A stretch of 63,151 bases of DNA, filler included, from Hausera hauseri (taxonomy: Eukaryota), in the NCBI GenBank assembly GCA_046269625.1. It is 11 parts of 11 records of this genome, joined end to end, with 100 filler letters (N's around TTAATTAATTAA, not from the genome) between each part and the next. Parts side by side here need not be neighbours in the genome. Positions count along the whole stretch, not along the records: positions 10,486 to 17,801 come from JBJURY010022897.1; 10 more parts are not named here. One strand, 5' to 3'. Below, in pieces: positions 2,723-57,864 of this stretch (the stretch's first letter is position 1; each line of letters begins with the position of its first letter). A program made the translations under genes and the position numbers. Under the pieces are notes generated by a model that was given only the letters and a program-made list of their open reading frames with translations, searched no databases and was not told the origin of the DNA.

Positions 2723-2724
2723 CC

Positions 2725-2905
2725 TCTAAGATTACCCGACATGGTGAAATGTTAAATTATTTGTGCAGAGCCAATCCGACCGCTGTCAAATCCGTTATGA
2801 ACCCGCTTCGCTGACTCTTATTCTCGCTCTTTTCGAGTCTTGTCACAATGTTTTAAAAGGTAATGTACCGCTCACCTGACGTCAGAAGAGTCGATTGCGT
2901 TGTTA
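2725..2905 (+). pseudogene. Adintovirus small basic core protein (pVII-like), 3' part lost
   Basis: RHGEMLNYLCRANP...ALFESCHNVLKGNVPLT*RQKSRLR. The NVLKGNVPL motif directly after the ATPase is typical of these elements. Confidence 0.65.
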
Positions 2906-2921
2906 AACTTGTGTTTAAGTC

Positions 2922-3340
2922 ATGGCCAGAAAAATGATTTTGATAGACCCGGGGTTGATAGAGAATCAAAAGTTGTATTTAGCGCCCAATGCCGTTAATG
3001 ACAATTTACGAGATTTAGATAGTCAGATGCAATTAGTTTTTTAAAGGGAAGATTTACACCAACACGACAAAGCCAGACTATATCAGCAAACTTTACAACG
3101 TTATTTGAATCGTCTCCAGCAACACAGACAAAAACTGTTAGGTGTTGTCGACGTTAAACCTCCTCCTCCTTAAGAAACTCCTCCAATGTTACAACCTGTT
3201 AACAAGAAGAAGATACTCAATCACTTAAAATTCTGACATCCACCACCCCCTTCCACTTTAAGGCAGTCTGGAATAGCGGTGTCTCGTACCCCGAGGAAGA
3301 GACATAAAGGAACAAATGCACCAGGCTGGAAATCATGGTC
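2922..3340 (+). pseudogene. Conserved Polinton/adintovirus hypothetical protein, decayed
   Basis: MARKMILIDP...LRDLDSQMQLVF*REDLHQHDKARLYQQTLQRYL, lying between the core protein and the integrase. Confidence 0.6.
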
Positions 3341-3349
3341 CGACAAATA

Positions 3350-4487: not shown

Positions 4488-4488
4488 A

Positions 4489-4735
4489 ATGGCAGAAGAA
4501 GCCGCTACCCCTGATGACAGAATAGAAAGAAGATCCGTTTCATATTGATTTGGTCAACTTGTTCCGCGTGTACAAGTGGTGTTTATTTCGCAACTTTTGG
4601 CAACATATACCGTTATAGGTGTTCCTCTCTTCAGTATGACTACAGGCAATGAACAGGAAAACAAGTTGTGGATGGTTTTACTGTATAGTTCTCTCGGCTA
4701 TCTTTTACCTAATCCAAGACAAGATCACAACAATA
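4489..4735 (+). pseudogene. Adintovirus small two-transmembrane protein
   Basis: VPRVQVVFISQLLATYTVIGV...KLWMVLLYSSLGYLLPNP. The C-terminal SSLGYLLPNP motif recurs in these elements. Confidence 0.65.
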
Positions 4736-6299: not shown

Positions 6300-7570
6300 G
6301 GTTTTATTTTCTAGATCATTTATGGCAAATAATCATTTCCAATAAATGCCATTTTATCAGAGCATCATTTTTTCCTATCCGTTTTCAATCGATGCTTATC
6401 GAGCATGGAAAAATAACAAAATGATATCTCCAACCACGTTTAACGAAAAAATGCGAAATATCACTCACTCATTACTATAAAAAATGATGTTGAAGGTGCA
6501 TCTACTGTAATATGTTACAACTCAGTCATCAAAGTAACACTTTTCTCTCATGCAATCATCTACTGTCAAGCGAGGTTTGTTTTGGGGATGACTATGCGAA
6601 ATTAAAGCCCTACTACGTGAAATCATACTCACATCATAAACACTTCAACTGTTTCACGTTCGAAGCAGAAAGCCCCGAAATCAAATCCGTCGGCATTATA
6701 GCATCAATGGGACAACCACCGGATTACGCCAATACAGAACATGCTTTTATATATAAGACACTCGATCAGACTAAGGGTTTGAAAACCTTTATTCACGAAC
6801 AAGGAACAAATCCGGATATTGATAATACCGGACTCTATGTTGAACCCGGCAAAATGAATGACATCAGCCACAGGCCTATCGAATTGGAACTGGCAAACAC
6901 TCCAAGGAACCATGCAAAAATGCTGGCATAAATCTCAATTATAAAAATCAAGAATATACATACAACTATGCTCAAGACATTTGCTTCAAGTTTCACGTGC
7001 TGTATAAAATCGTTGATAAGTTCAATTGTATGTATGCATTTTATCCCAGACAAAGACACGCCATACTATGGTAGTCTCATCAATGATTTTAACATAACCG
7101 CATTTTTGAACGACTGTCATGCGTTTCAGAAATTATTAGTGACGATAAATTGAAGGATGAATTACAAAAGGAACGGTGTTTTCAGCGTTGCAGTGATATG
7201 GATTATGAATCATCCATTTCTCCAACAAAATGGTGTGCAACAGAATGGTATCTTCAGTGTAGCAGACTACAAATTTTAGCAAATCGACAAATAAAAGTTG
7301 AGTTTGAGAAGTATAATAATATCAACATTGCTCAAACGAAAACACTCTTACAACCGTGGATTCACATGGAAAATTGTAAATAAAGAAGTGGCACGATCGC
7401 TATCGTTGTCTGTGAATAGTTCTGAATCAGTTCTAGAGAATTTTCAAAATGAATATGGAAACGATGAAAGTCAAAAATTAAATATCAAACGCGACAAAGA
7501 TACATTCCTGTCTACAAATCAAGATCGACAACAGATCATTAACGATAATTTCTACAACACGTACACTGCT
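6300..7570 (+). pseudogene. DEG/ENaC (amiloride-sensitive channel) extracellular-domain fragment, intronless and frameshifted
   Basis: HFNCFTF, GLKTFIHEQGTNP, GLYVEPG, a Cys-rich thumb, and CFQRCSDMDYESSISPTKW spread over several frames. Confidence 0.75.
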
Positions 7571-8079
7571 ACGTCACGACTACTCGTTCCTGATTTGTTT
7601 AGGTTAAATATAATGGATAATTTTAAAAAATGAATAAGTGCCAGAATTGCAAATTGGACCACATCCACCAATCTGGCGTTGTTTTAATGTTATAAAATAT
7701 ATATCACACAACTGAACCTTCAATTGCAATTTCGCTTGATGCCATAAAACTTTGTAAATCTATTAATTAACACTTCAATTGGGAAACCTGTTTCGTTTGG
7801 ATACTTTGTGGAAATACAACTCCGATTTTCAGTTTTTTGTTGAAAACGGATTTGTACATTTACTGCCTGGCAGTTTGTGATGCTATTTTTGGGGAAATAC
7901 ATCACGCCTAGGGTTTATGTTCCCTTACAAAAAATGATTTTGTTATTCAGTGGCAGATTTCCGGGATTCTTTAAATAATTTGGTGCTTGTACAATTGACT
8001 CATTGTGGTCACTTGTGGCACCACGATACCATTCGTCAGGTTACTAAAAGAAAACAACAATAATAACCCCACTGTTCGC

Positions 8080-9630
8080 GTGGACCCCATAGTATATAAT
8101 GTTCTTGGAGACAGACCTGGAATAAATATAAGAATCGGAAATTTGGAAAAATTTTGTTTCCTAGATACTGGAGCAAATATATATGTTATTGATCAAATCA
8201 TTTTAGATCTTAATAATAACGCACAATTCAAAGCTCATAAAAGTTACGTACAACGTGCTAATGGTAGCCCCTTGGAAATTAATGATAAAGCTGAATTACC
8301 GGTTATATGTAACAAAGTGTCGAAACGTATCAGTTTTTTCGTAGAGAAAATTATCTCACCACAAGTAATCCGCAGCATTGAGTTTCTACAATAATTTTGC
8401 ATTCGTCTAACCTTGGCGGATACTGAACAGCAATACTGCATGCCTATAGATGATGTCAGTATTCAAAGTTTGGTGAAAACATTTTATGATATTTTTATAC
8501 AACATCAATGTGATATTGGAAAACGGATACTCTTAGGCACGAAATATGCAAAAAAGGCGACCCCGTCACGCATTTACTTGATAAAATTGAGGAAGCTGTT
8601 AAAAAATTGAGACGTATAGAATTATTAAAAAGTGTGACTCTGAATGGAACGCTCCTTTAGTGTGTGTTTAAGGAAGAAAGACACTATTGATATTCGGCTA
8701 TGCTTACATTTTCATGCTCTTAACGATATTACTTTAAGGCCAAATTTCCCAATGCCGAACATAGAAGAATTATTAGATTTCTTAGGGAAAGCCAGATTTT
8801 TTTCAATATTTGATTTAGGCAATGTAAACTACCAGGTCAAATTAGAAGAAAATTCAAAACTTAAGACAGACTTCAGTACAAAAACTAAACAGTACTGTTT
8901 CAGTAGAATGCCTTTCGGAATTGCCGCAGTGCTCGGCACATTTCAGAAATTAATGAATAAAGTTGTAGGCGATTTGAATTATAAATGTGCTGTGGCGAGC
9001 TTAAATGATATATTAATTTATTCGGAAACGTTGCGGCCCATTATCAGACCCTAGAAGAAGTATATGAGCACATCAGAAAAGCCGGGATAAAAATTAACCC
9101 ATCAAGGTGTCATTGTTTGAAAGACGAAATTAAATTTCTGTGACACATACTTAATAGAAATTGATTGAATTAGGATCCAAATAATGTCAGCGATGTACAG
9201 AATTTCGAAACACCTAAATGTGTAAAACGTTTACGAAGTTTCCTGGGACTTTGCAATTATTATAAATAATTTATTGAAAATTATTTAGAATTCTCAAGAA
9301 CTTTGGAAAGCCTCTGCAAGTCTAAAGAACAGAAGTTGTATTGGTCAAATGTCGCAGAAAAGTCTTTTCAAATTTTGAAAAGTATATTGTGCATTGCTCC
9401 AATTTTAGTATTTCCTGGTTTTACGAAGATTTTCACATTAGACACGGATGCTAGTTTCGATCGCATCGGATCGGTATTGTCTCAAGCAGATGATCAGGGT
9501 AGAGAACATATCATAGCTTATAGGTCTCATTCACTTTCTAACTATGAAATGGGATACTGCATCACGAGAATAGACTTACTTGACGGTTTATTATTCTTGT
9601 GATCATTTTAAGCATTATGATCATTTACCA
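8080..9630 (+). mobile_element. Ty3/gypsy family B pol fragment (protease, RT, RNase H), decayed
   Basis: FLDTGA; IRLCLHFHALN; RMPFGIA; degenerate SLNDILIYS; FTLDTDASFDRIGSVLSQ. It resembles 46480-48804. Confidence 0.9.
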
Positions 9631-9658: not shown

Positions 9659-10060
9659 TCAAAATGGAAAGCTTTTAAATGAATTCATATAAAATCTTTT
9701 ATCATCAAATGGATCTAGTGCAGTTTTCTTTTGTTCATATAATTGAATATTATGATGATCAGATGACAATCCATAATTTCTTTTATAAATGGTTATATTA
9801 TTAAATAAAACATTTTTATAATCAATAATTGTTAATTTATTATTTTTATTAATACCTTTACATTTTGAACACGTTTTCAATGTTTCATAATCATAACATT
9901 TTGCTTTTAAAAATACCGCTTCTGTTATATAATCATTTTCTGGTAATTCATTTTTTACCTTTCCTAAGACATCTGGAACTACCGATTCTTTCAAATTCTC
10001 TTTAATATTCTCTAATTTATCATGTATTTCAACAATGCATGAATCAGTATTTTTCACAGT
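9659..10060 (-). pseudogene. C-terminus of a Polinton protein-primed family B DNA polymerase, joined in frame to unrelated upstream sequence
   Basis: NTDSC (the YxDTDS position), LGKVKNE..ITEAVFLKAKCY, KGI, and KTALDPFDDKRF..SFPF. Confidence 0.8.
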
Positions 10061-13000
10061 CAATGGAAATCTACAGTTGAATGATCCACCTTCTGTCCCT
10101 ATATCATAAAGATATTCTTCGCTTTGTCTTAGGAGTTTTACTTCTGTTGTAACATCCTTTTTACATTGTATAGCACTAAAGCAATTGGGATTATGCCATC
10201 TTTCAGAAACAGTCATATTTATTCCTATTGATGTTGCTGTATAATACAATCCTCTAAAATATTCTTAATTATCTTAAATGATGATTTATCTGCGAATTTA
10301 TTGTGCAAACATCAAATGGTAAAGATTGAGTTATTTTTTGCTTTATACGATATATAATGTAAGACCCCTTTTCAACAACTGCTGGNNNNNNNNNNNNNNN
10401 NNNNNNNNNNNNNNNNNNNNNNNNNNNNNTTAATTAATTAANNNNNNNNNNNNNNNNNNNNNNNNNNNNNNNNNNNNNNNNNNNNTGGATAGAGGAAGAG
10501 AAGAAAATTTGGAGTAGAGATTGGAGTTGTGCGGAATGAAGGAGTGGAAGAAGAAGATGAAAGAGAAAAAGTGGTAGAGATATGAAAAGTGGTAGGAATA
10601 GAAGGAAGAAGTGTAGGAAATGATGAAGCAAGACTAGGCGCGGAAGAGGGAGGTGGGAATGGTGTAGCAATAGATGTGGTGATAGCAAGGAGTGGAGGAG
10701 TAAAAAAAGAAGCTGGTGTATCAAGTGGTAAAGTGTCGTCGACAAAGAAAGCTGGCTTTAGGTTGGTGATGTGTACAGTGAAGTCTACCGTCTTTGGAGA
10801 TGATAACGTTATGTGAGTGGAGCTGTAAAAGTTTATAGGGCCCCAAGTACCGAGCCTGGAAACCGCAAGGAGCTTGATTTTTTAGCCATACGAATTTGGC
10901 CGTGTACAAATCTTCAGGTAGGTATGTTTTATTTTTGTGAAATATCCTGCAAAACTAGTCTTTGCTGACTTTGACGAAGTAATTTTGCGCCGCCCGTATC
11001 GTCTCATCTATGGGAGTGTCGTCTAGGGTGATCAGTTCAAATAATGATCGTACAGGAGCTTCGAATAAGGCTTCAGTAGGTGAGCATTCTGTAGAAGTGG
11101 GCGGAGTGTTCCGCCAACCGAGCAGAACAAACGGAAGAAAATTCGTCCAACTAGTGTTGGACTCTTCCAAAATTCTTAGTGACATTTTCAATGTTTGGTG
11201 GAAACGTTCTAGAAGGCCATTAGATCAGGAGTGATAAGGCGTAGTATGTATGTGATAGTTCCCCAATCGGTTAACGAGGGATTTGAACAGGTTGGACTCA
11301 AACCGTGGACCTTGGTCCGTGATGATGAAGCGAGGTGATCTAAACTTGCTAATCCATGTGCGGATGAAAACGTCAGCTATGGTGTCGGTGTTTGTGCTCC
11401 GCAGAGGGATGGCTTCGGGCCATCGCGAGGAACGGTCCACCATGGTGAGGATGAATTGATGACCGTTGTCTGGAGGAAAAAGGCCAACGATGTCAATATG
11501 TACGGACTCGAATCGCGATGTGCAGGGAAAGTGGAATAGTGGTGACTTTAAATGCTTAGTTGTTTTGTATTTTTCGCATGCCACACACTCCTTAACCCAT
11601 GCATGCACATCAGAACGCATTGACGGCCATATGACTTGTCGATGGAGGAGACGAAAAGTGGCTTTAGCACCAGGATGGTGTAGTGAATGCACGTGGTGAA
11701 ATGCTTGTCGTTGAAATTACGGTGCTAAATTTATTACTGAATGACCTAATTTGGAGGTGTCTAAAGCCACGCCGTCAACGATTGTGCGAGATTTGAAATG
11801 TTTACTCATGTCTGCTGGTGGCTGGTTCTGTTGGAGTTGTTCTGGCGTAAAAATCGGAGAAAAATTAATAGAACTAACCGACCTCGATAAAAAGTCAGCA
11901 AATAAATTGTTTACCCATTGATATGCTTAATATCAAAATTAAATGTCGACAAGTATGACATTTGCCGTTCTTGGCGTGTGGAGGGGTGTTTCATGGCCAT
12001 GATGTTAAGTAAAGGCTTGTGGTCAGTTTGTACAGTGAAATGACAAGCGACAAGCAGGTGTGAAATGTGCTTTAAGGCGAGAACGATTGCCAATAGTTCT
12101 CGATCAAACGTGGAATATCTTGTTTCAGGTGCTGTTAGTTTGCGAGAAAAGAATCCCAAGGGTTGGTTTTCTCCCTTGTAGATCTGATGAAGTACAGCGC
12201 CTACAGCAGTGGTTGACGCATCTGTGATGAGGACCAGCTCTGAATCAGGCTTCGGAAAAGCAAGAATATCTACAGATTTGATGCATTTGCGTAGCCTGTC
12301 GAATTTGTCAACCAAGTCAGGTGTCCACTAGATTATTGATGTTTTTTGCCGCCGCTTAAATATGAAAATAGAGCTGTTAATTCCGAGCAATATGGCACAT
12401 ATTTATGTGCAAAGTGGAGTGTGCCAAGGAAGCTACGCATTTTGGTGGTCATACGTGGCAATTGGATGTTTATAAGGGCTTCGACTCGATCGGATTGGGG
12501 AGAATGACCATCAGGTGTGATAACATGGCCTAAAAAGTTAATGCGTTATTTGAAAAAGTGACATTTTTCAAAGTTAATCTGGAGAATATGGTGGTGAAGG
12601 CGTTGGAATATTGAGCGAAGATGTTCTTCATGATGTTTTGCGGAAGATGAAACGACAAAAATGTCGTCGATATAAGGGTGTGCAAACGAGAAATCGGAAA
12701 GAATGGGGTTAATGTGTCGTTGGAAAGTTTGTGAGACATTCCACAAACCAAATGGCATGAATAGATATTCATAAAGGCCAAAAGGAGTAGTTACTGGGTT
12801 TTTTCAATGTCTTCAGGTGCTACCGGTATTAGATGGTAGGCTTTAGCTAAATTAATGGTCGAATAGATGGTGGTGGAGTTAAGGCGACGCAGGATATTCT
12901 TGATGAGTGGTAAAGGATACACATCTATGATTGTCAGGGTGTTTAGCTATCGGGGGTCACCGCATGGTCTAAAAGTACCATCCTTTTTTGTACCACGTGT

Positions 13001-13978
13001 AAAGGTGATGACCAAGGTGATTTGGAACGACGTACTATGCCAGAACGTTCGACCTCAAGAAATTTGGCTTCTACGGCCTGTCTACGGCGAGGTGACAGAG
13101 GCGGTACCTTTTGGCGCATTAAGCGTTGATGCTGTGTGACTATATGGTGTAGGGTGCTATTGGCAGGAGTGAAAGTACGATCTTTTTTAAGTACGCGTGG
13201 ACATGATTTGTTGATGATTTTTTGTAATGTGGTAGGTAGCTGTGAAAGATTCGGTGAAAGTGGTGGAACGGTTTGAGTGGTGGCGGATGCGATGTGTATG
13301 TTGTTAGGCAACGTGCAGTCAAGTGGTATTTGGTGTAAAATGGTTAAATTAAAAATGATGTTGGCTGAGGTATTTTCGTCGAAGGAGTTAGCGTTGGTGG
13401 TAGTACCACACCTATCGACATCAAATCTAGATTGTATATTAGAGTTATTGTTTAAAAATTTCCGAACTGAATTATTATTATGAAAATTCGAATTATTGTT
13501 ATAAAAAATCGAATTATTAGCTGACTTTTTTAGGATTGACGGCCGCCTCACGGTCGACTGTGCAATAGTCGAAACGCTATTTACATGGCCAGAAATGTCG
13601 CCAACGGTGCCTTTCCTCAAACATCGCTGGCTGCAGTCAACCAGTAAATTGTAATGAGAGAGAAATTCAGATCCAAAGATTGCCTACTGGACGTTAGCGA
13701 CTGTGAACGTCCAGCGGAAAGATGTGGAGAAATTTGGTAGCGTGAAAGACAGTGTATCCGTGCCCTAGATGTGCAACGGCTGGCCTAAAGCAGTATATAA
13801 AGGCTTAATTTTGAAAGGAGAGTTTTGTGTAGGAAAGATTTGCGGTAATAGAGAAATGTCTGCCCTTGTATCAATAAGGAAGTCAAGAGATTGAGTTGTA
13901 GGAGCACTAATTGCGGCTTTTAACGCGAAAACTGCGAAAGAAACATGTCGGCGTTTAGAGTGTGAAGGAATGCCTTTG

Positions 13979-14019
13979 CCAGAGGTTGCCGTGACTTCTG
14001 CCGGCGAATTTAGTTTTTT
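13979..14019 (-). promoter_or_regulatory. gag-pol -1 ribosomal frameshift signal (A AAA AAC plus pseudoknot), copy 1
   Basis: Gag frame reads ...CCA AAA AAC TAA. The -1 frame is open to FLIDTRA. Stems GCCG/CGGC and CAGA/TCTG follow. Confidence 0.7.
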
Positions 14020-15101
14020 GGAAAAGCAGAAGTGGAACGACTGTTTGAAGTGAAGGCAGTACGTCCGTCATTCGTACTGGATTTGAAGGTGCAACCGGAG
14101 ATACATTTACGTGCTTGATTTTTGAATCTTGCATGGTAAATGCAGACAACGGTGTTGGAGGAAAATTTACTGTTATAAAATTGGCAAGCCAGGCAGCATT
14201 TCTGAGCATTTGTATTGAATCTGCTGTGGTAGTAGCAGATCGACGAACGCGCAGGCGATGGTGAGCGGTTTCGTGAAGGAGAACGGGTACAGTCAGCGGC
14301 AAAACCCCCTCATCGGGCCAAAGACAATTCATTTAATTTATTATTTATGTTGTTAGTAGTTGCCTGCAATGCAATATTTTCAGCACGTAGCTGATTTATC
14401 TGCTGTTCTATGGGCGTATTAGTTGTTTGTATGTCGTTAGAAGCAACTTCTGATGAAACTACGGGTTTCGCATTTATGTGTAGGACATAGTATGTCCTAT
14501 CGGCCAATTCGGCCAATTTTTCAAGCTGCGTGGATTCGCCCGCCACGGTAAGAAATGCCCGTATTTGGATAGGTATGGAATTCAGAAAATAATGGCGTAA
14601 AAGGTCAGGGTTATGTTCCTTAGTTACTCCAAGAGTACGCATGTGTGCTAGTGAAGTGCGTAAGAAGTCGCAGGGTTTTTGTGTGCCCAGTGCATTTTCG
14701 TTGAAGAAACGCTGCGTTATGGAGTCAATGGGAGGTTCGGTCTGTTTCAATACAGCGTCGAATAGTTGGGTATAAGGGTCATGGTGTTGAAAGATCTCTA
14801 GCAGATTGTGTAATGAGGCTTTTATGGAATTCGGGAGAAGATAGAGCAAGCTATGGGCTTTAGATAAGGAGTCGGTGATTCGATTAGACTGAAGCCAGAG
14901 TTGGTGGAAGTGAAGCCACGTTTCACTGGATTTTTTGTTATCTACGAAGTATTCAGTGCAGTGTTGAGTATTGGTAGGATTTTTGTGAGGATTTGCATCG
15001 ATTGAAGAAAATGAAGGGTTTGTTTTGGTGTAGTAGAGAATGGGTATTGGCTTTTTTGTGGTGGTTGTATCCGTGGTGTCAATAGTCGGTGGGAAATTCA
15101 T

Positions 15102-15323
15102 TCCACCGCGGATACGGAGATGCATATTGAAGCAAGCTCGATTTGGAAAAGATAGAGTTTCGTTAAGATGAATGATAGCGCCGTGATGAGTAAGGAAGAA
15201 GTCTGAAGAACCAAAGATAGAAGAAAGGTGGGGATATGCGGGTGTGTAGTATGGAGGGTATATATATGGGTGTTATTATAAAAAAGAAAAAGGAAATTGG
15301 AGCAGTTGTGCTCCTGGGGGCAT
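15102..15323 (-). pseudogene. Ubiquitin-like domain fused to Gag, copy 1
   Basis: QFPFSF.YNNTHIYTLHTTH (shift) GSSDFFLTHHGAIIHLNETLSFPNRACFNMHLRIRGG, followed in frame by Gag (MNFPPT...). Confidence 0.7.
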
Positions 15324-15599
15324 GACTTGAGGCCGACATCGAAGGTGTCCCACGACCGAACGGCGCAAGGTTGGCGGTCGGGATTTCCACCCCGGCGGTG
15401 CGGGCGCCAAAATACGGGATGGCCGACCTCCCCCTGGACTGTTTGTCGTAGTAGTCTTCGGTTCTAACAGCAACTTGCTGGGCTTCGCCAAACGTGTTTG
15501 TAAATAACGGTGACGATGGAGGATGAATTAGATAATCTTTGTAGTCGAATACCATTAAAGCGTCTATATACAGTTTAATATATATCGCAACAATTAGTG

Positions 15600-16195
15600 G
15601 ATTACCTTGTTCAATCAGTGTGTTGATTGTGAAAATGCATGACCAAATATTGGTACCAGCCATCATCAGAAAAGGATTGACTCTATACGTTTCAAGTGGG
15701 AATGAATCATTAGCGGAAATAATTGATGTAGATTCCTGTCTATAATTTACTTTCTTCTCCGGATCCCATAAAATTGATTCGTGCAATGAAACTTTAGAAT
15801 ATATTTCCAAAGAAATTGCGTAAGGAACAACATCGGTATTTCTATTTGTCGTATGAAGCGATTGTTATTTAACATAGCGCTCTGAATGGCATAACCTCGT
15901 GGTACTGCCTTATCAGCGTTTAGAGTAGATCGAGGTTCCATTTTGAAAAAATTGGTTACTAGATGCTTAACGCATGGAATTCTGCTTGAACCTCCAACTG
16001 TTTCAACAGATGAAATAGGATCTCGGAAATTTTCTTGATAATTTTGATGCAAATTATAGAATACGGAAAACATTCTTTTCAGTAAATTCTCACAAATGCC
16101 TTTTAAAATTGTTCTACCAAATTTTGCCGAAACATATATATTATCCATTAAACATTCGATATTTATGGAATACTCTAACGAATTAGCCCTTTGTG
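15600..16195 (-). pseudogene. Hsp110 (HSPA4/HSPH1-like) internal fragment, intronless
   Basis: INIECLMDN..VETVGGSSRIPCVK..STLNADKAVPRGYAIQSAML..(shift) DVVPYAISL. Confidence 0.85.
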
Positions 16196-16884
16196 TCTGA
16201 TTAATGACTGTAATAGATGTAACCATACTGTCAAGTAGTTGCGTCGAAAGTTGAGACTCCTTTATAGTTGAACTTAAGCTCGGTTGTCATCCTCGACATT
16301 TGAATCTCGTTCGAATTTTTGAAATATTTTGCCTAATTGTTGCCTTTCTTCTTTCGTTGGTGTTGATGAACCGAGTATACTAATAGATTGAGAATCAACT
16401 ATTAACTGTTTTGGATTTATTTCAAATTCGTTAGAGGATTCTTTGGTTAGAGATTCAGGTTTATATGAGCCGGAATTAGAACTATATTCTGCACTATTTG
16501 ATGGTAAAAAGAGTGGAAATTCTTGCATAGCCATTGGTGTAGGTAATTCCGCATCTACACGCTCTTCGGAGACGGTGTTTAACATGTTATCAGCTGCTGA
16601 CTGTACTAGCTTAGTAGGATATTGATCTGCAATAATCGTTATCATAAAGGTTGGAATTGGTGATTGATTTTTAGTCTTAAAACTTCGACAAACGGGGCCA
16701 TTACGTCTGTCGCGTAGCCGTTTCTTCATACTATTGTCACTTATTATCTTTTCGTTAAACAAGCGTCATCGTGTTGACACATTGATCAAAAATGGTGCTG
16801 GAACTAAACCTTGGTTTTTATAATAATCTTCTTCAGTAATTATCTTCTTCTCTATTCGTATTTATTTTCCTATCAGACGTTCAT

Positions 16885-17560
16885 TCTACTTTATGTTCTA
16901 TATTATACCGATCAGAAACAAACCTCACTGTACGAAATAAAATAAGAACTGGTATTTCTCTTTTTAACAATGAAACGATCACTCCAACCTCCGGACCACG
17001 CGCTCGTTTTCCAGCTCCTGCTTTTGCCAATAAATTTACTTGCTAATTACTAGCAGGTCTAAAACTATACTCGACCATCGACTTTATGCTACATTTATAA
17101 GAATATTTATCTTTATCGAAGAAAACAAAAACCGTATTGTTGGCCATTCTTTGTTGGGCGATAATAATTGTCTCGGATCCGTTAATAATAAAATACGCAC
17201 CGGGATCCAACGGACATTCATTTAATTGGGCCGAATCAACATCAGATATTTTCGATAACAAACAATATGTTGAACGAAGCATAAATAAACTCTTACATGT
17301 TAACTCGGTCATTTATCTCAACGAGCTTGTCATCTGTTCCGTAATTCCTCAAAGCCAGATCAAGAAAAAGAGGCGCATTGTAAGTTAAGTTTCTGAGTCG
17401 TGCATCATTTAGCATGATTTGATTATCAGACCCATCATTCTCGTAATGGGTGGGTTTACTGAGGTAAATTTGTTTAAAAGTAAAATCGCATTTATTTGGA
17501 GCATAATAACCTGAGCCGTATTGCGTTTCTTCTTCAACAAATAACTTTGGCACTGGCACC
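16885..17560 (-). pseudogene. RPB2: RNA polymerase II second-largest subunit N-terminal fragment, intronless and frameshifted
   Basis: FKQIYLSKPTH..DARLRNLTYNAPLF; [27 protein letters not shown]; REIPVLILFRTVRFVSDR. Confidence 0.9.
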
Positions 17561-17901
17561 ATTTTATTTTTTTGTATTGTATAACCGTCGTGTAACTGAG
17601 AGCAAGATCCATGAATTTCACTGTAACTGGATTTTATTGATTGAACTTCATCTTCAAATAACTTTGAATCATTAAGAATGTCTTCCAAAATAATTCGATT
17701 GTCCCTCCATTTTGATTGAACACCTGAAGTATTCTCATTGAGACCGGGTTTCACAATATCAAGAATCGATTTTTGAAAGTCGAAACTGTCCATGTCCAAA
17801 TNNNNNNNNNNNNNNNNNNNNNNNNNNNNNNNNNNNNNNNNNNNNTTAATTAATTAANNNNNNNNNNNNNNNNNNNNNNNNNNNNNNNNNNNNNNNNNNN
17901 N

Positions 17902-18322
17902 TTTTTAGACACGCCTGCAAATCAAATTTGACCGTCAGGCTCATCGTACTCATTTTGCCAATAACGTTGTTTCAAACTAGGTCCAGAAATCACTGTTGCA
18001 ACTTATAGTTGTCTTGAGAACGTTTCGTAGATTAGATCATTGTCAATCAAAGACTATATATTCGAATGTTCATTGAAGGAATGTTCAATGATGAATTCCA
18101 TTTTGGAAAATTTCACCATCTTACAGACAGTTTCCGAAGCATAATAGAAAAATCAGTTTTTTAGACACGCCTGCAAATCAAATTTGACCGTCAGGCTCAT
18201 CGTACTCATTTTGCCAATAACGTTGTTTCAAACTCAGTCCAGAAATCACTGTTGCAATTTATAGTTGTCTTGAGAACGTTTCGTAGATTAGATCATTGTC
18301 AATCAAAGACTACATATTCGAA
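17902..18322 (+). repeat. Direct duplication of about 165 bp (17902-18066 and 18158-18322)
   Basis: Both copies start tttttagacacgcctgcaaatc and end atattcgaa, with few differences. Confidence 0.85.
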
Positions 18323-20399
18323 CATTCTGCAGATTTCCAGGTCAGCAAGCGTAATCAGAAACTTTTACGTTATAATCTCTCGATACATTCCGTGTCGTTT
18401 GACAGATCTTTTTTAATTGGAAACATTTCCTACTTTTTATAATATCACTTTGGTCGATGTTTATTATCCGTAATTTCGTGATACAATTTTGTGCATGTAT
18501 TTCAACAGACTTTATCAAACATTGAAATTTTTTTGCAACTTTCCACTTGTTGTTTCATGCGTCAATTTGATTTCCAAATTTTTTATGTACACCTCTCTTG
18601 GTCGAGTATCGTCAGATTTTATAATGGTTTTTCATGATTTGATCTGCAAATCTCTCGTTCAATTAATGAAACCGTGAATTTGACAACGATGTAATCTGTG
18701 ATAAAAAAGTTTGTTTGAATTTGAAATAAAACAGGAGTTTTAACCGTTTTGAATTTTAATTCGCTATTGGCCATTTTTTTTTTATTTTTTCGTTTTAGAG
18801 TCCTTTATCATTCTATTTCGTCAATGATTCTTAATCGGTGGATATTATTCAGCTTTAAACCACATTGGTGTCAGAATATTGAAAATAAACTAAATGCCGG
18901 AGAAGTTATATTGAATGGTAAATTGATTATTTTTCACTCAGCTATTCAACAAAGGCTATGTCAGTAAACCAGTCAAATAATGTTCCGCAATGCTGTTCCA
19001 TCCACATGATGAATGCAATGTTCAAGAAATCCGAAGAACCGTCCGAAAATGATCTATTTTTACGCCGATTAGAACTGTATTTCCAAAAATACGGAAATTA
19101 TTTGGAACATCTTTCATTCAATTGGATTTTGCCAAAGAAAAATATGTGAGACAACCAAATTTCGAATTTACAGAAAATCTGAAACTTGCTCAACCAAGTT
19201 CGAATGTAAAAGACAAACATCAAATCAAACTATTAAAGGATTATAAAAATATGAATAACACTAATTTTAATCACCATGACAAAGCCACAATTGGTGTTAC
19301 GTTTAATCCAGAAATTCGCAGTTGCGAAAAAGGAGATTATTCTGATAACATTTTGAATAATGTACGGCACTCAAGTATGTCAACTGTTCGATCAAGCCAA
19401 GAAATTTTCTACACAGCAAAATCATCAATGGTTAGTTCGAAGGAAAGTTTATCATGCTGTTTCAAAAATTCTCCGGAAAGTTCAAGTTCAGAAAAAGGCT
19501 TTTATTCATTGGAAAGTGGATCTTATACGACATGCATGAGCGGTTCAACTTGAGATGAGATTGAAAAATTGAACATACTCGATATTACAGATTCCGAATC
19601 CAATGAACAAACGCAAAATTCTTTAAAATGGATAACTAATTCCGACAACGATAAAGTTTCAACATTTCAAATGTCAAATAAAGATGATGTATCTTTAATA
19701 CAGAAGGATAACAATTCGCTTGGGGACTTTACTGCAGTAACTCCTCTCAGTAGAATTTTAAAAATTACTACAAAATCCCAGACCAATGCAAGCAGTATCA
19801 AATCACCAATTGAAAAATCAAAATTTTCAACCAAATCAGTGATCAATAAAGTGTTTGAAAAATGTATGACACCAGTGAAGAGTGAGTCGACAGCGGATTT
19901 GTTATTGATGGCAACGGAAGATAAAGGTAAATATCTCAGAGAGGTTTCAACTGTAAATCATAGAACCACGTTACGAGTCCCGTCGTCCATTGACACGTTT
20001 GAATTGCTAGTTATTGCTATGTTCAAATTGAAATTAAGTCACCACATTGAACAATTGCTGGAGTTTTTCACGAACGATTTTCTCAATTTGACCATCGAAA
20101 ATGTTAAAGACTATCAACTGTCCATGAAAACGATGGAACATTGTATGGTATTCATGATTGCCGCTGTTAGGTTGCCCGATGACAGCACATGGAAATGGGA
20201 AATAAAGGACTGTTTTCTGGATTCATTGAGAATTGCTCTCAAAGCGTTTTACAGTGGTATGTTGAATTTTACCGTAACGGAATTCGGTGTATCGCTGATT
20301 GACGTTTATGCTTTGAAACATTTCGATGCGAAAGTCACCGATGGTTTAATATTGAATTCATCCGATAATTTGTATCACGGTTGTGACCCGGATTTGTTA

Positions 20400-21330
20400 T
20401 TGGCAATTTGGGAAATCAGCAAATTTCCACAGGAATATCATTTTATACAAATACCAATCAGAGTCTGGAGGAATTCATACAGAATTTTAATGCCGATAAT
20501 CGTAAGATGATCAAGCGAACGTTTTTGTCGACGGCACGAGATTTTTGTTACATATCCATTCTGGATTTAAAAACAGTTCATCGTGATCCATTCAGTGGTA
20601 ATTTATCTGAACAGGAAATCGTTGAGAACCTTACTGACAGTGATGAATTGCCCAAACATTGATCTTTACAAATTGCAATTTCTGACGTGCAAGGTCAGTA
20701 AATTAGTTATTGATTTGATGGATAATATCAAATGTAAATTTGGTGATTATGAATTACTTTCTGTTACAAACGATAAAGAGATCATACTTGAAATAATTGA
20801 ATTTTCACATTTGATACCTGACATATTTGATATTTATTTGAATGTTGTACTAGAGACGAACAAAGATGCTTTACGTGATTTACCTCTTGCTGCAGCCTTA
20901 CATTACAATAACTGCGTGTATGTCGCCCATCGTTGCTTTTTTGGAACAATCTATGTAAAAATTCACGTCGGTAAGATTCTTAAACGAAATCATAATTTTG
21001 AGGAAGTCGATGAATGTCTTCTTAAACCAGTTGCACTTAACTTAATGCCAATTGTCTATAAGTTCAGTTTGGCGGCAACCCAAGCGTTGTCTGAAGAAGT
21101 CCAACAACAAGCTGATGAGTTAAGTGCTTGTTTAGAAAATATTTCCGATTTCTCTGATATCGAATCGTTGAAACTTGAAAAGTTTCACCAGTCATTAAAA
21201 CAGAGCACTGCATATTTTGTTGTCTAAAGTATACGATGTCCTACTCAACGAGTTTATAATCGGTTTCTCGGGAATTTGTTAAACGCTTTTTTCTTTGTAT
21301 TTATAAAGTCCTTAGACGCAATGCTTTCAA
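20400..21330 (+). pseudogene. ZW10: ZW10 (RZZ/NRZ complex) middle fragment, intronless and frameshifted
   Basis: FLTCKVSKLVIDLM..IFDIYLNVV..LRDLPLAAALHYNNCVYVAH matches, from memory, ZW10 PTCRIS..LPQLAAIHHNNCMYIAH; also VYNRFLGNLLN. Confidence 0.8.
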
Positions 21331-22084
21331 CTGAACCTTCAAAATTGACCGACTTTAATATTCTGATATCCTCAAACAGGTATCTGGATCAATAACATTT
21401 AAATCAAATAAAGCTACTATTCTGAGTAATATTACATCGGTTTATTCTACAAAGGTGGCATCTAATAGTAGTTTTACTACTCATCCTCATGTGAGTAATT
21501 TGTCTTCCATTGATACGGCATCAGATTACTCTAAATGGGCTACTGTACATAACATTAGACACTCTCGTCTATCAAATACGACGCATCTGACTGAATCATC
21601 TAAAAACGTTAACTTCAGTACGAATCCATTATCTACTACAATCAGTCCCATCGTGAATTCAACATCATTGGTACCCATGTCGCCCATTAGTAACATGATA
21701 ACTACAAAACCAACTTTGTTATCTACTATACGCCCTTCTGCAAGGCCTAGTTCTGTTCCCAATTAAAAAGAAAGTACAGGCTCAAAGAACATATCTCCAA
21801 CAACTCTATCACAATCATCGATTCCTGCTTCAAAGATTTTTTTCGAACAAGATCACTGACATCTAATACATTTAAAACAATCACGAATATATCGAGTGTT
21901 TCGAAAACAAAACACAGAGTCGTTGAGTACAAAGATCTGTGCGCGATGAGGTAGGATTTATTACTGTGCACTTTTCGACCGGCAAATATTTTTTCATATA
22001 CTTTTTATCAATAATACCTCTTCCTCACTTTTCCCATATATTTTTGTCCATACGATTTCCAACGATCCGAAATCGCGAGTAAAA

Positions 22085-22235
22085 GGCATGGCGGCTAATT
22101 CTCTATCTGATATTTTGCCGGAAAAGAGCGATAAAGCAAAACTAATTTTAGTACCACATTTGAATAATTTAGTTTTTCACACTATCACTTTACTTCGAGA
22201 AACATAAATTGATGAATTGAATGACACTGATCAAG
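22085..22235 (+). pseudogene. Importin-7/8-like short fragment
   Basis: AANSLSDIL..KAKLILVPHLNNLVFHTITLLRET*IDELND resembles importin-7 [29 protein letters not shown] (recalled). Confidence 0.5.
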
Positions 22236-22429
22236 AGGGATCTCGTTGCACCAGAAAAATTGCAATTCGATTTCAAATCAGACGGAGCATTAACTATAGA
22301 AGAATTGCGAACAGAATTGAATGCGATTGTCATATCTCAGTGGATAAAGAATGAATTGCGACTCAAATTGAACAAGATCTGGCGCGATGCTGATAAGGCA
22401 AAATAATAGAAAATTACTCGTCTAGCAGA

Positions 22430-22680
22430 AGCAATGGTATGTTCACAACTGAAAATTATTCTGATGATTGCCACAATTGATGTCGAAATGTTCAAAAACT
22501 TCTTTCCTTCAGTTTTTGTTCTTGAAATTGAAGATCGAACACATCCTGTCAGCTATTATTTCCTCGATGATGCTACTGAAAGGTTGAATTGTCAGCCCCA
22601 TGATTCAGCGAAAAAGAAAGAATTGAAAAATGACTACGGAAATCAGAAAAGTAATATTAGCGACACTGATGAGCTCAGTA
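22430..22680 (+). pseudogene. DEAH-box helicase (DHX9-like) fragment around motif III
   Basis: LKIILMIATIDVEMFKNFF..IEDRTHPVSYYFLDD, compared with LMSATID..GRTYPV.EYFLED. Confidence 0.7.
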
Positions 22681-22784
22681 GAGGAAAAATGAGAGTTCTG
22701 GCCCAAAACCCTATAGCCCCCCTTGAAATTGATGCGTTTAAACAAAAGTGCATTTCACGAATTGATATATCGGTACTTATTTAT

Positions 22785-48804: not shown

Positions 48805-50945
48805 TGTGAGCAGGAATTGAGACAGCCAGCAGAATGTCAGGAAATTCAGAAAAGAAGGAAAATAAGACTCATTTCCCGAATGAAGGAGATAAGTGTTATA
48901 TAAACTATTATAATAAACCGCTTATGGATAATTCTATTTTACGATCATCAAATGACGTTGAGGTCGGGATGGTAGAGACCCAATCTACTAACAGTAGTGG
49001 AGTGCATTAATACTTTTATATATAAAATTAAAGAGTGTGAAACATTTATTAACACAACAATAACACTTGTGTAATATATACATTACTATCCTCATCACTA
49101 GCAGTTTCATGCAGTATAGATTTAACTGAAACATTGAACAATAACAAGATTTAATAAAATAAAAACACTTAATAATTTACTTATCTATTTTTAACAAGTT
49201 TCCTGATGGGTTGAATTTTTCCATCTTTTTCCCTTATTCCTTGTATGCATACTTTAACATATGCTTGTGTGTACTCTGAGAGATCCATTGTTTGTATCTT
49301 AAAGTCCATAATATTTTTGAACTTAGTTGCATCAGCCAGGAAATATTGTTCTCCGTCATTTTTTAGCATGTCATCANNNNNNNNNNNNNNNNNNNNNNNN
49401 NNNNNNNNNNNNNNNNNNNNTTAATTAATTAANNNNNNNNNNNNNNNNNNNNNNNNNNNNNNNNNNNNNNNNNNNNGTTTTAACTGAAATCTACGGTTCT
49501 AGCAGAACTAGTCAACTTGTTTCAGAGTAATTGAAAAATTACGTTGGATAGTTGCATTATGTATATTTTTAGGTACCGCTCGTTGTCATCATCTATTAAA
49601 GAATTCTTCAGCCAATGGAACAAAAAAGAAGACTGTTATTGAAAAATATTCAGAATTTCTCTATGCTCTGATTAGCTCGAATCAGGAACATAGACATCTT
49701 GTGATGGATATTTTGATGAACTTTGACAACATTGATAATGGCATGGACGTAGGATATGTTCAAAAGCCATTATTGACATTGATTCAATATTTGCAAGTTC
49801 AGAGTTCCCTATTGTAATCAATGCTTCAAAAATATTAACAGATATTTACATGGAATTATATTCTTTCGAGGGTAATATAAAACCACCATTTCTGTCAGTG
49901 ATTGGTGAAAACGTCCAAAAATTTTTATTCACTGTTTGTTGTAATTTTAATTCAAAGTGTATCAGTGGATCTGCAGGAAATGTCGAAAAATCTAATAATG
50001 TCCACGAACAAATCCTACAAAACAGAAATAACATATCAGTACTCAGTAAAGTGAAACATGTATTACAGTTAGCGACAGATTTTCTTGTCATCGGTAATCA
50101 GTGGCTTGATTTAGCAGCGTTATTTGTCACTGAGACTGATCGTATTTTCAAAGAATTGGTTGAGACTAGTCCTCCGAACAGTACAAACACTTTCAGAAAG
50201 ATGACCAGACATTTAAAATATCGTGTCTTGGAGTTAGCGTTTTTATAGGTTTATTGTATTTCTTTTACCAAGCGACAGAAATAAAGCAAACACCAAATTT
50301 ATTTGGTAAACGTTTAAAAACATTTTAAACATCCAGTGTCCAATTATGTTAGCTTTTGCACTTTCGGCTACATCACATAATCAGACAACCTTACAAAGAG
50401 CACTTGCACTCCAGGGTGTTTGTTTACATCTTCCAGATTTTAATGTTGGAATAATGGGCAAAAATATGCAGGTTTTCAACGGAATTAACTAAATCAATGT
50501 CTTGAATATCCTCAAAATAATAAAATGGTTTCTAACGTATACCCAAAGAAAGACATGCCTCAAACGTCAACTAAAAGCGCCGATGGCGATACAAAAATGA
50601 ACAACGATATTGGAACTATACATGTTGAAAGAATAAAATCCGGTAACGAAAATCCCGACATAAACTCAAATCGTTCTAATCGTTGTGAAACGACATTGAA
50701 GTCTGATCGAAATAATAATTTATTAAATGTTAACACAAAAACAAACGATATTTTAAATCAAACTACTGATGTTGTAATGCCAAATACACAACCAGATAAC
50801 ATCAAAATACAATCTACAATGGGGAATACTGAGTTTGCAAATTTGGAAAGGAGAGTTCAGCAAATAATACATAAATGGATAGACAATCCTAAAACAAACG
50901 TTTCTACAGCCGAGACATGCCGTCTTTGAATATCGTATTCAGTCA

Positions 50946-51317
50946 TTGCAGAATCAAGAATCGCTTTTGCAGCAAATAATAAGCAGTAAAACAGCTGCAC
51001 TAAATCAAAAAGAAATACTGCTAAACAATTATATGACACGAGTAAGTGCAAATGAAAGTGAATGTAAACAACTGTGTCTTATGTTGTTGGAAAACGAATC
51101 GAAAATCGAATCACTGAATAATTTTGTGAATCAACAAGCATCGAAATTAACCAAGTTAGAAAATGCGAAACAAGCATTCGATAATATGAATTTTCACAAC
51201 AAAATAAAAAGAGAAGATTATATATCAACATTCAGCAAATTACAACAGCAGTTATCAAAAATATTAGAAAATAATGAATTAGAACGGAAATTAATAGAAT
51301 CATCCAAAAAACATTGA
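50946..51317 (+). pseudogene. Unidentified coiled-coil host-gene fragment
   Basis: Heptad-like Q/E/L/K-rich ORF among other co-oriented fragments. I do not recognise the family. Confidence 0.3.
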
Positions 51318-51554
51318 AACTTTGTCATATAAGTGAACAAAAGGTATACAAAACAATAGAATTTTCATATTTTTCCAGACGCAATTAACAGATACTGGGG
51401 TTAAGATCACATTGGAAAAGGAAGCGACACCAGCAAATGGTCCGGTTGAAGAATGCACGTATGAAATACTCAGCCCGTGCTAGGGTTCTATCGCAGTTGG
51501 GTGGACAAAAGTAACGGCGTTCGGTCTGGTGATGGCGTTCGGCCTAGGCGGTCT

Positions 51555-52600
51555 TCAATATCAGCAATTCAATGAAAGCAAACTCCTGGATATGCTCATA
51601 GATTCTTTTAATGATGTCGTTCTACAGGTAGACTTACTAACTCCTATGGGAATACCTATTAATCAGTTCCTCGCTTCTTTAATTGATTGTCCTAATTCAT
51701 TAATAAATGCTTCGTTGAAAACTTTAAAGCCAATTGATGCACTGGACTGTTTTGACAAAATTGGCTATCACCTTTATAATTTACCACTACATTCCAAATA
51801 TTGTAAGATGGGTTTTGCCAGTGCTCTGGATCCTATTTTGATTACTACGTGCATCTTAAATTATCAGAATTCATTTAATGATCAAACAAATAATAGGAAA
51901 TATAAGGAACTTATGGAAGTAAAAGGAAACTTTTCGAATACATTGAGTAACCTTATTGTACTTTTTCGAGTTTTTCATTTTTGGCAGAAATCCAGAGCCG
52001 AAGGTTGGAAAAGTACATTTTGTCAGAAGAATCTTTTATCTACCTCCGTAATTGAAATAACAACTGCAATCAGAACTCAATTTCTGGGTCAGCTCAGAGC
52101 ATCGGGATTTGTAAAAGCAAGAGTCAATGGAGACATTCTAGATTTAAATTATAATTTGGAAAATTGGGCAGTTGATAAAGTTGCAATCGTTTCCGGTTTG
52201 ATAAACAGTATCGTACACTACAATTCCGAAAATATGATTTTGACAGCTAATGTGAATGCTAAGATTACTCCACATCCGACGTCCTCTCTTCATAATTTTG
52301 AACTCTAATTGTCTCACAATGTCAAATTTCACAACGAATCTCTTTCTATATGATCGTTCCATTAAGATTCCCAACATCTCAAATTACAATCAATTAGACT
52401 ATCAGCCAATTATGACTGACAACATCCATATACATTAAACATCTAACAATGGTTACACCAGTCACTGTAGCATTGATGGGTTCAAACATGAACATTATTA
52501 AATCGGAATTCAAACATCAAGATTCTTTCAAGAAAATTCCATTCAAGAAAAATATTAAGAGAAATAAAACACAAGCTGAATCACTCTGGCCTCTTAATCT
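51555..52600 (+). pseudogene. YTHDC2: YTHDC2 helicase C-terminal region fragment (HA2/OB), intronless
   Basis: WQKSRAEGWKSTFCQKNLLS..IRTQFLGQLRASGFVKAR..GDILDLNYNLENWAV matches the YTHDC2-specific RTQLLGQLRASGFVRAR..NSENWAVVK; also VTPVTVAL. Confidence 0.85.
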
Positions 52601-52777
52601 AAAACTTTCAATCGTCGGTCCGGAGATGGTCGAATTACCTCCCGATTCTACAAGGAACGAAAATGTCGATGGTTCGCAGAATTGTTTACCCTCATCAAGA
52701 GGTAACTTATTTATCCGTATTCTATAATTCATAAATAATTTGGTTGAGGGACGGAGCGTGCCCGCCCCCGTTGCGCC

Positions 52778-53004
52778 ATGTTTCCTTTCTTTTCTCATCC
52801 TTTCTAATAATAAACATGTCCACACATTAAGGGTTACGCACAAACAAACAGCTCATTCTTTATACTGAATTTTCCTTTTTTATCGGCTTTTCAGATTATG
52901 TAATGCACAACGGTTTGATTTTGCAACCTTACGACTCTCTTTCATCCTTTGCACCCGAGAAATATTACATCACTCTCACTGTCCATTTTCGCATCCATGG
53001 TGGG
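52778..53004 (+). pseudogene. Ubiquitin-like domain fused to Gag, copy 3
   Basis: FLILSNNKHVHTLRVTHKQTAHSLY (shift) IGFSDYVMHNGLILQPYDSLSSFAPEKYYITLTVHFRIHGG, continuing in frame into Gag. Confidence 0.75.
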
Positions 53005-57000: not shown

Positions 57001-57864
57001 AATCAGGTTCATTATGTCGCCGCTTTAACAACAACAAATCATACATTCCGAAGGATTTATACTCCGCCAAGTTTGTATGGTTAAAAGATCATTCTCCTTC
57101 AGGTTTTAGACCTCAATATGTTGGCCCGTACAAACTGCTGAATCATTCATCTCACACATCAACAATCTTACGCGAAGATAAACCGTACAACGTCCACATT
57201 TCGAATCTGAAACCTGCTTTATCCAACTGCATCGTCTCCTTTGCTTGACATGTTTTCTTCGCCATCTCCATGACATAACTTCGAACTACAATCAAGCTCA
57301 AACCAATTATGTAAGGCACGCATAGTGACATTCAGTACCTTTATCAGAGAAAAGCTCTTTGATGGTACACAACGCCTGACCCGTACCAAAACTGAATAGG
57401 AACAAATAGTATTCCTTGTTGCTATTTATTTTTGTCATCCGTATTATCTTCATTATTCTTTTTCCACTACATAGCTGCTTTTCTGCCACGGGGGGGGGTG
57501 ATGTGGTGCCTTGGCCGTGAGCGCGTTTGGTTCCTCGCCCACCATATGTCAGATCATCTATCTAGTCAAACAAGAATTGATAACAAGAAGTGAAACAGGA
57601 TTTTAGGAACTGTTCAATTTACTGTCTCTGAAACTTCAATGAACAGTACCAAGTTAAAAGGTCCATACTATGAATGCCATACAATCGTATAAGTTGTGAA
57701 GAAAGTATTGAGCGGCCAGTTTCCAGATATTTTCCTAGATGACAATCTCCATGATTCAGCATGTATATGTTTCCTCAATTAGCAAGTTTTCAAAATATCC
57801 TTGTAAATAACTTTAGTAAAGATGGTTACGTCATCTCAGACTTTGGCAATATTTCCCTCTAGCA

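Follow-up and report, generated by a model that had tools for sequence, protein, structure and literature searches.

A Gly-Gly-ending ubiquitin-like domain between host-like upstream sequence and Gag in a Ty3/gypsy retrotransposon group with decayed copies in Hausera hauseri

Why should the frame of a retrotransposon Gag be preceded by a segment that ends almost as ubiquitin does? The question is raised by the minus strand of positions 15102 to 15323 in a 63,151-nucleotide stretch of the Hausera hauseri assembly GCA_046269625.1 (the window), which consists of 11 short contigs with N spacers between them. A preliminary description read there a ubiquitin-like (UBL) domain fused to the front of Gag, and a profile, a structure model and intact relatives now back that reading. 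We think it probable that the locus is a decayed copy of a Ty3/gypsy group in which one long frame runs through variable upstream sequence (cargo), the UBL, its closing GG and Gag, the GG being a likely cut site at which a host deubiquitinase (DUB) would free Gag.

Decayed copies of one Ty3/gypsy element

Three diverged copies of the element lie on three contigs of the window, with nucleotide identities of 63-68%: copy A on the minus strand from about 15430 to 10486, copy B on the plus strand at about 35390-40240, and copy C (copy 3 of the preliminary description) on the plus strand at about 52740-57500. Each is decayed by stops and frameshifts. All have the order gag-PR-RT-RH-INT, the gag-then-pol arrangement of Ty3/gypsy elements that is intact in two loci discussed below (L001 and L004), the protease in this assignment being called from position and a DTG motif only. 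The decayed pol of copy A (10486..14060, minus strand; protease, RT, RNase H and integrase in order, as assigned by Pfam from the corresponding regions of copy C) is cut by the contig end. Gag after the GG occupies 14313..15101 (minus strand, 263 aa), with a weak DUF7041 match and 42% identity to the intact relative P0130. A premature stop at 14312-14310 severs it from its two CxYHxxF...C zinc knuckles, which lie in the Gag remainder (14010..14309, minus strand); this ends in KN-stop where pol begins in another frame, as it does in most relatives.

Named relatives of the integrase are animal pol proteins (fish, mosquito, sea slug and coral) at 32-52% identity, which together with a DEG/ENaC fragment (PF00858) elsewhere in the window makes an animal host probable. 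The element, with its DUF7041 (PF23055) Gag, may belong to the CsRN1/Kabuki-like clade of Ty3/gypsy. A word-index homologue search with the copy A ORF as query gave no match, and no relative was found in a metagenome collection (query A4), in viral contigs or in prokaryote genomes.

The ends of the element are harder to place. Self-blastn, local alignments and a repeat finder, applied to the window and to three loci, revealed no LTR pair, and no 5' end of the element is in view in any contig examined; the 5' ends may lie past the limits of the contigs. After the pol of copy C, a G-run followed by TGATGTGGTG (57490..57512, plus strand), shared with locus L001, is what we assume to be a polypurine tract and 3' LTR start. 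A T-rich tract, the G-run and TGATGTGGTG are common to both 3' ends (window 57400-57560 and L001:5780-5930), with an alignment score that was reached in 0 of 500 shuffles; the motif in the form of the G-run and TGATGTGG is conserved in both. Each 3' end is GC-rich for less than 100 nt and then AT-rich. The G-run and TGATGTGGTG probably open a short 3' LTR, and since L001 turns AT-rich within about 100 nt of the motif, very short LTRs are hinted at. The motif has no copy upstream of the leader in copies A and C. At 15409 lies TGGCGCCC, which may resemble a tRNA-Lys primer site, a role we do not claim for it.

Contig depth in run X1, the one public run in which this stretch occurs, is summed over contigs and not equal to copy number; it is tens of thousands over pol and about 400-4,600 over the UBL and leader; at about 15430 it drops from thousands to less than 300, and beyond 15530 it is 28-63. 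The copy A UBL is clearly within the repeated part.

The ubiquitin-like segment ahead of Gag

In copy A, the minus-strand peptide GSSDFFLTHHGAIIHLNETLSFPNRACFNMHLRIRGG|MNFPPT is open and in the Gag frame, as first described, within a single 320-aa frame from 15272 to 14313. The likeness of LRIRGG to the ubiquitin tail LRLRGG is borne out by the presence of LRLRGG|M in the PDB alignments. In the six frames of the window the pattern [LFVIM][RK][LIV][RKH]GG occurs twice, both times ahead of Gag (copies A and C), while 60 shuffles averaged 0.12 occurrences and never exceeded 1. The 271-aa Gag ORF reported earlier exists, but it starts at the Met in MHLRIRGG (15125), and the Met after GG gives 263 aa. 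Because 37 run X1 contigs (depth 1912 of 1938) have another letter in codon 15125, that Met is private to copy A. Translation from near ATG 15323, raised in the preliminary description, is ruled out by a frame that runs into TAA TAA at 15278-15273. ATG 15339 was also rejected as a start, its codon being variable in about half of the depth.

The C-terminal half of the copy A UBL (15102..15224, minus strand) ends in LRIRGG (GG at 15107-15102), lies in the Gag frame and is aligned by tblastn with P0133. The first strands (15240..15300, minus strand; FPFSF / YNNTHIYTLHTTH) appear in three-frame translation out of frame with this half. The upstream FPF..YNNTHIYTLHTTH segment, earlier matched to copy 3, holds as a stitched reading but not as a single frame in either copy: tblastn places the intact relative P0133 (RPFSFYIFHNNNHIHT) on copy A in three frames, with the first strands in frames -1 and -2, so the stitching was right in substance. 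Copy A is broken near 15320, 15285 and 15240. The first of these breaks falls in the leader (15301..15430, minus strand), a family-shared stretch between cargo and UBL that is weakly like P0133 residues 613-641. In copy B the UBL remnant is spread over three frames and ends GICGG|M (35389..35609, plus strand); in copy C it ends FRIHGG|S (52770..53004, plus strand), its C-terminal half being in the Gag frame and its match seen in both profile and tblastn searches. An intron with its acceptor at a shared TTCAG was considered and rejected, since its phase would not be the same in all copies and intact relatives run colinear with no intron there. A CCGTATT motif near the junctions was dropped, as it occurs 13 times in the window.

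A profile search, proposed in the preliminary description as a check, puts the three window segments first. With a profile of 29 natural UBLs that contains no window sequence, copy A scores E 6e-7, copy B 2e-4 and copy C 2e-3; the next best of 2,690 window ORF pieces has 0.16. Pfam gave no match for nine window UBL pieces and three longer readings, and single-sequence PDB searches with the UBL segments gave no relevant match. Profile searching also yielded P0130 (515 aa), a natural unbroken relative in which the segment ahead of Gag is complete and ends SRLLGG|MGP. A profile of the P0130 segment and window pieces matched ubiquitin, SDE2 and FUBI/eS30 in 20 of its 20 PDB hits at E<=10, and a second such profile did so in 18 of 19; E-values for single, non-repeat domains are weak (best 0.017-0.07), the strong ones being sums over ubiquitin repeats. 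(In alignments A10 and A11 part of the copy B row is out of frame, the position chosen there being too far downstream.) Pfam ubiquitin (PF00240) was matched at E<=0.01 by 9 of 31 relatives, which were picked for rank or long N-termini from the 150 described below; 2 of the 31 lie above the curated cut-off, and PF00240 matched neither the window pieces nor P0130. One relative, P0152, has near-canonical ubiquitin (Pfam E 3.7e-23), and the UBLs of the relatives are just 12-32% identical to it.

A first structure model, built from five rows, had a pLDDT of 56 and matched no UBL; it was superseded by a model of the P0130 UBL from a 26-row alignment, with a pLDDT of 86 and the order E-E-H-E-E-E. Foldseek matched the latter to ubiquitin and SUMO with probability 1.00 and TM 0.63-0.75 (18 matches at E<=0.001), and the best VIA-align match had Z 10.5 and rmsd 2.0 with 73 aligned. 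The P0130 model thus has the beta-beta-alpha-beta-beta-beta order of the beta-grasp fold and superposes on ubiquitin/SUMO, and copy A is tied to it by its profile match. On this model, the segment before Gag is a predicted ubiquitin fold.

In 101 codon pairs from the window copies, taken from hand-picked, non-independent blocks, there are 42, 32 and 61 differences at codon positions 1, 2 and 3. Between L001 and L003, pN/pS is lowest in Gag (0.26), higher in the UBL (0.48) and highest in the leader (0.74), values that are rough because pS is near saturation. These figures suggest modest codon-level constraint in the UBL. Variants in run X1, where 40 of 139 rows were covered, are by themselves uninformative: 4 of the 9 listed at 15102-15218 are synonymous, and the 17 listed at 15298-15414 have no frame preference or codon periodicity. 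The preliminary description held that its reading would fail if translation began only at the Met after GG and the upstream sequence lacked codon-level conservation; the sequences do not point that way, with Met after GG in just 4 of 29 relatives and differences that favor third codon positions.

Spread of the domain and its upstream cargo

P0130 served as the query of an exhaustive search that yielded 2,177 proteins at E<=0.001; we examined the 150 best, P0130 itself among them. A full UBL-GG is present in 29 of these best 150, 22-61 residues ahead of a conserved Gag tryptophan, and a partial UBL in three more. That 29 of 29 end in GG is circular, since GG was among the criteria for choosing these 29 seeds. 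The Gag tree (the 150 plus copy A) places 28 of the 29 within a 44-row group, mostly with two knuckles, that holds copy A. FastTree support is 0.76 for this group and rises to 0.94 when four more short rows are included (48 rows); IQ-TREE, without bootstrap values, recovered the group. Where at least 100 residues precede the Gag tryptophan, a GG-UBL is found in 27 of 27 grouped rows versus one of five rows outside (P0204). The remaining 12 grouped rows are ORFs that start too late for a UBL to show, and the 101 outside rows in which fewer than 100 residues precede the tryptophan are uninformative on upstream DNA.

A di-glycine closing the UBL with another protein in frame after it, the layout of a DUB-processed fusion, is present in copy A and in all 27 long grouped relatives. 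The residue after GG in the 29 relatives is Ser in 10, Met in 4, Ala in 4, Asn in 3, Thr in 3, Gly in 2, and Asp, Gln or Val in one each. It is never Pro, a residue that hinders DUB cleavage when it follows GG. As Met is the exception at this site, translation cannot generally begin there. The GG-Met noticed in copy A is real but is no rule, Ser being found in copy C. The analogy once drawn with polyubiquitin junctions also breaks down: there is a single unit in place of tandem near-identical units with GG-M joins, its identity to P0152 is low, and most relatives have another residue after GG. The tail itself varies widely at P2-P6 (Arg at P3 in 8 of 29), so recognition by a DUB is not assured.

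P0152, with its near-canonical ubiquitin, stands in the tree beside P0171, P0168 and P0150, whose UBLs are diverged, which suggests from sequence that ubiquitin was freshly captured in place of an old spacer. P0204 combines a RING piece, a UBL (MRLRGG|M) and a single-knuckle DUF7041 Gag and is nested among ordinary Gags outside the group; an independent origin of the design is possible there.

Ahead of the UBL, 18 of the 29 relatives have 116-876 further residues. A comparison of 19 cargoes found only one alike pair. Host-gene pieces were recognized in the cargo of six relatives: Rrp44/DIS3 and CNOT1 in P0133, histone H2A in P0138, cohesin SCC3 in P0143, 5'-nucleotidase in P0156, a RING finger in P0204 and Hsp90 in P0155; for 12 of the 18 long cargoes no source was identified. 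Near-identical proteins on separate contigs share the same cargo in three pairs (P0133/P0282, P0138/P0283 and P0156/P0286), which may be alleles. L001:2-330 and residues about 460-690 of P0145 have a common cargo with short tandem repeats (a 105-nt unit in L001, TQEVPGQP-type in P0145) and diverge downstream.

The copies in the window have cargo of the same kind. The last cargo piece of copy A (15431..15864, minus strand) has a stop-free frame of 187 codons into the leader, a length that 0 of 5000 shuffles reach, and no Pfam match. Farther upstream on the same strand lie a decayed, internal Hsp70-family gene fragment (15750..16286; PF00012 E 1e-18, profile positions 271-383 of 599) and a frameshifted N-terminal RPB2 fragment (17034..17799; PF04563 E 1e-11 and 2.5e-15), the latter with a variant at one site in up to 10 run X1 contigs. 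A diverged run X1 contig crosses the step from cargo to leader (record 6, 15349-15490). The cargo of copy B (34582..35397, plus strand) has 272 stop-free codons into the UBL (0 of 5000 shuffles) and no Pfam match; its open frame as a whole (34582-35490) is 302 codons, with no long frame on the other strand, and no likeness to the P0130 leader was found. Copy C has a run of same-sense ORF fragments (49477..52740, plus strand) that includes a DHX36-like helicase piece (51484-52305, plus strand; PDB E 4e-13), and the frame entering its UBL is open for 19 codons only (P 0.63). The identified host pieces upstream of copies A and C are in the sense of the element, have no visible intron and have decayed as the element has; same-sense, uninterrupted host pieces are seen both in the window and in the relatives.

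Four further loci were examined. In L001 the cargo-UBL-Gag frame is open from the contig start and pol follows intact, 1,128 codons long and in a shifted frame, which puts the design on a seemingly autonomous element. L002 is a fragment of the L001 family, and the contig of L003 ends within pol; the upstream frame of L003 runs for 845 codons without a stop, where the longest run among 300 shuffles was 193. In L004 pol is intact and Met follows GG, with only half a UBL and no cargo. In L004:1-200 the element, its pol and Gag intact, starts mid-UBL with AT-rich DNA adjoining upstream, and it may be a 5'-truncated insertion or have lost its cargo. A point missed in the preliminary description is that the frame enters the UBL from far upstream through variable host-gene cargo, so that the domain appears to be an internal spacer and not the N-terminus of the protein.

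Proposed release of Gag at the GG and other explanations

Because the assembly of Gag demands precision, cargo joined to its front would be expected to be lethal to the element. In the mechanism we propose, the cargo would be host mRNA acquired by template switching onto co-packaged mRNAs during reverse transcription and would be retained only as an open frame. Translation would start far upstream and read through it. FUBI is cleaved from FUBI-eS30, and by analogy with that fusion, with Sde2 and with pestivirus ubiquitin-NS3, a host DUB may cut after the GG. The N-terminus of Gag would then be fixed whatever the captured cargo, owing to that cut, and an autonomous element could tolerate in-frame cargo ahead of its capsid, the cargo-UBL piece being discarded or degraded. 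By a modest margin over even chances we lean toward the broader proposal of an autonomous, exon-shuffling gypsy lineage in which a host-cleaved ubiquitin-fold spacer insulates Gag from ever-changing mosaics of host mRNA, with a separate origin that may exist in the P0204 lineage.

An unlikely alternative is that the element acts as a gene trap: the upstream DNA would be the host gene at the landing site, a very short 5' LTR and stop-free leader would allow a host promoter and start codon to be borrowed, and the UBL-GG would still free Gag. Such an arrangement is consistent with the 10- to 50-fold fall in summed depth at about 15430, with upstream DNA that is unlike between copies, with the short LTRs suggested by the AT-rich turn near the 3' G-run motif of L001, and with the same sense of every identified upstream piece in the window. 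It sits poorly with unrelated genes joined with no intron seen (DIS3 and CNOT1 in P0133; RPB2 adjoining the Hsp70-family piece in copy A), with the lack of a 3' motif copy upstream of the leader in A or C, and with the up to 10 differing contigs that cover the RPB2 piece. The UBL might instead be translated but stay uncut on Gag as a domain for folding, solubility or targeting to the proteasome, much as UBLs remain uncleaved in Rad23/Dsk2-type proteins. The fold matches do include the uncleaved Ddi1, parkin, Rad23 and midnolin, with Z within about 1 of SUMO and ubiquitin, and the surface is highly diverged; Burro elements, moreover, have an internal Ubi2/SUMO-like motif in ORF1 in what their report describes (PMC6431247). 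We nevertheless hold this to be improbable, because GG ends the domain in every one of the 27 long grouped rows at a short distance before the Gag tryptophan, the sequence matches are the cleaved fusions SDE2, FUBI-eS30 and polyubiquitin, and an uncut Gag would keep up to about 900 residues of unrelated cargo.

Two further readings question whether the joined frame is translated or exists at all. If Gag started at or after the GG, the UBL and upstream frames would be an untranslated vestige of one old capture, as the Met after GG in copies A and B, L004 and 4 of 29 relatives, the four grouped rows that start just 31-41 residues before the Gag tryptophan, and the broken UBLs of the window copies might suggest. 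This is strongly disfavored, and very improbable in our judgment, given that 25 of 29 relatives have no Met there, that the UBL shows codon-level constraint and keeps its fold despite such low identity, and that upstream stop-free runs extend for hundreds of codons. That the joins are short-read assembly chimeras or gene-caller artefacts is scarcely credible. Every source is indeed a short contig (1.5-8.5 kb) and the family is highly repeated, but one frame open over 600-900 codons is not expected of misjoins, the same joins recur in separate contigs, a diverged contig crosses the copy A step, and the UBL-Gag join is found in 29 diverse proteins (ENA and JGI being among the sources of 11 looked up).

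The full-text literature searched, in which few subscription papers or Repbase reports are covered, showed no account of a UBL that ends in GG and precedes the Gag of a retrotransposon. Judged by its sequences, the UBL-GG group appears to be an undescribed variant of gypsy elements, and supplement or Repbase domain tables could bear on its novelty. It resembles other Ty3/gypsy elements with a DUF7041 Gag in having gag followed by PR-RT-RH-INT, a frame-shifted pol (L001, L004) and the CxYHxxF knuckle. In ordinary DUF7041 relatives the called protein is mostly an ORF of 250-330 aa that has a single knuckle and lacks a UBL, whereas the UBL group has mostly two knuckles, UBL-GG before Gag and variable upstream cargo.

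The parallels outside this family are taken from parts of the sources cited. Captured ubiquitin serves as a processing signal in the polyprotein of cytopathogenic pestiviruses (BVDV Osloss, CP1 and CP Rit), where host hydrolases set the N-terminus downstream in ubiquitin-NS3 and another host mRNA (S27a) can lie upstream (PMC8310069). Those inserts, as presented there, are sporadic RNA-virus recombinants; here a diverged UBL is a fixed trait of a retroelement group, and cleavage is what we infer. Sde2 is a UBL fusion precursor in which GG-K is fixed (PMC9508853). Like the present elements, Sde2 and FUBI-eS30 have a diverged GG-ending UBL before a functional protein, and they are the best non-repeat sequence matches; they are, as far as those accounts go, host genes with an N-terminal UBL, whereas here it is internal and the next residue varies. 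In LTR-mediated retroposition, partial host mRNAs, sometimes from several genes, are joined in sense to LTR-element sequence (Tan et al. 2016, PMC5131818). By the description given in that paper, the resulting chimeras are non-autonomous or pseudo-LTR elements; in the present group cargo and Gag share one frame, a UBL lies between them, and pol may be intact (L001). The giant gypsy elements Burro/GYPSM1 of planarians have an ORF1 polyprotein with extra host-like domains, including the Ubi2/SUMO-like motif (PMC6431247), but the domain set is stable in an ORF1 of ~4,900 aa, and the portions of that report used here mention neither a GG site before Gag nor a variable mosaic. Ginger and other DNA transposons are described as carrying OTU or Ulp1 proteases (PMC2836005).

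If the proposed cleavage is true, a ubiquitin spacer cut by the host would remove the cost of cargo, which would explain the continued capture and shuffling of host exons in translated form, and such elements would act as standing machines for exon shuffling, translating chimeric host proteins with a UBL-GG at their end. The pestivirus ubiquitin trick would no longer be a sporadic accident but a strategy fixed in a group of retroelements. A natural panel for tests of DUB specificity would be at hand in about 30 diverged UBLs that end in GG, one of them recently near-canonical. The elements would also be a source of chimeric genes and of misleading host-gene "paralogues" in animal assemblies and metagenomes.

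Other parts of the window contain further remnants. Positions 17902-22919 hold same-strand, apparently intron-less, decayed host-like fragments with no element in view, among them a ZW10 C-terminal piece (PF20666 E 3e-11) and, by eye, a DEAH-helicase-like piece near 22410; they may be further cargo of the same kind. In the contig at 5581-10385 lie a DEG/ENaC fragment (6494-6931; PF00858 E 7e-7) and another decayed gypsy pol (7999-9602); on its minus strand a piece at 9659-10264 resembles, by eye, a Polinton polymerase. Inverted repeats of 265 nt (1125-1386 and 3590-3854; 92%) flank a Polinton ATPase-like fragment recognized by eye (2373-2729). Decayed DNA transposase remnants at 23503-25856 have nested inverted repeats (24872-25070 / 25658-25856; 94%), and at 45083-48693 an unrelated gypsy integrase, rich in purines, has left two remnants in tandem that are about 65% alike. 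An intact C2H2 zinc-finger ORF of 543 codons occupies 59173-60804 on the minus strand, in DNA of 27% GC.
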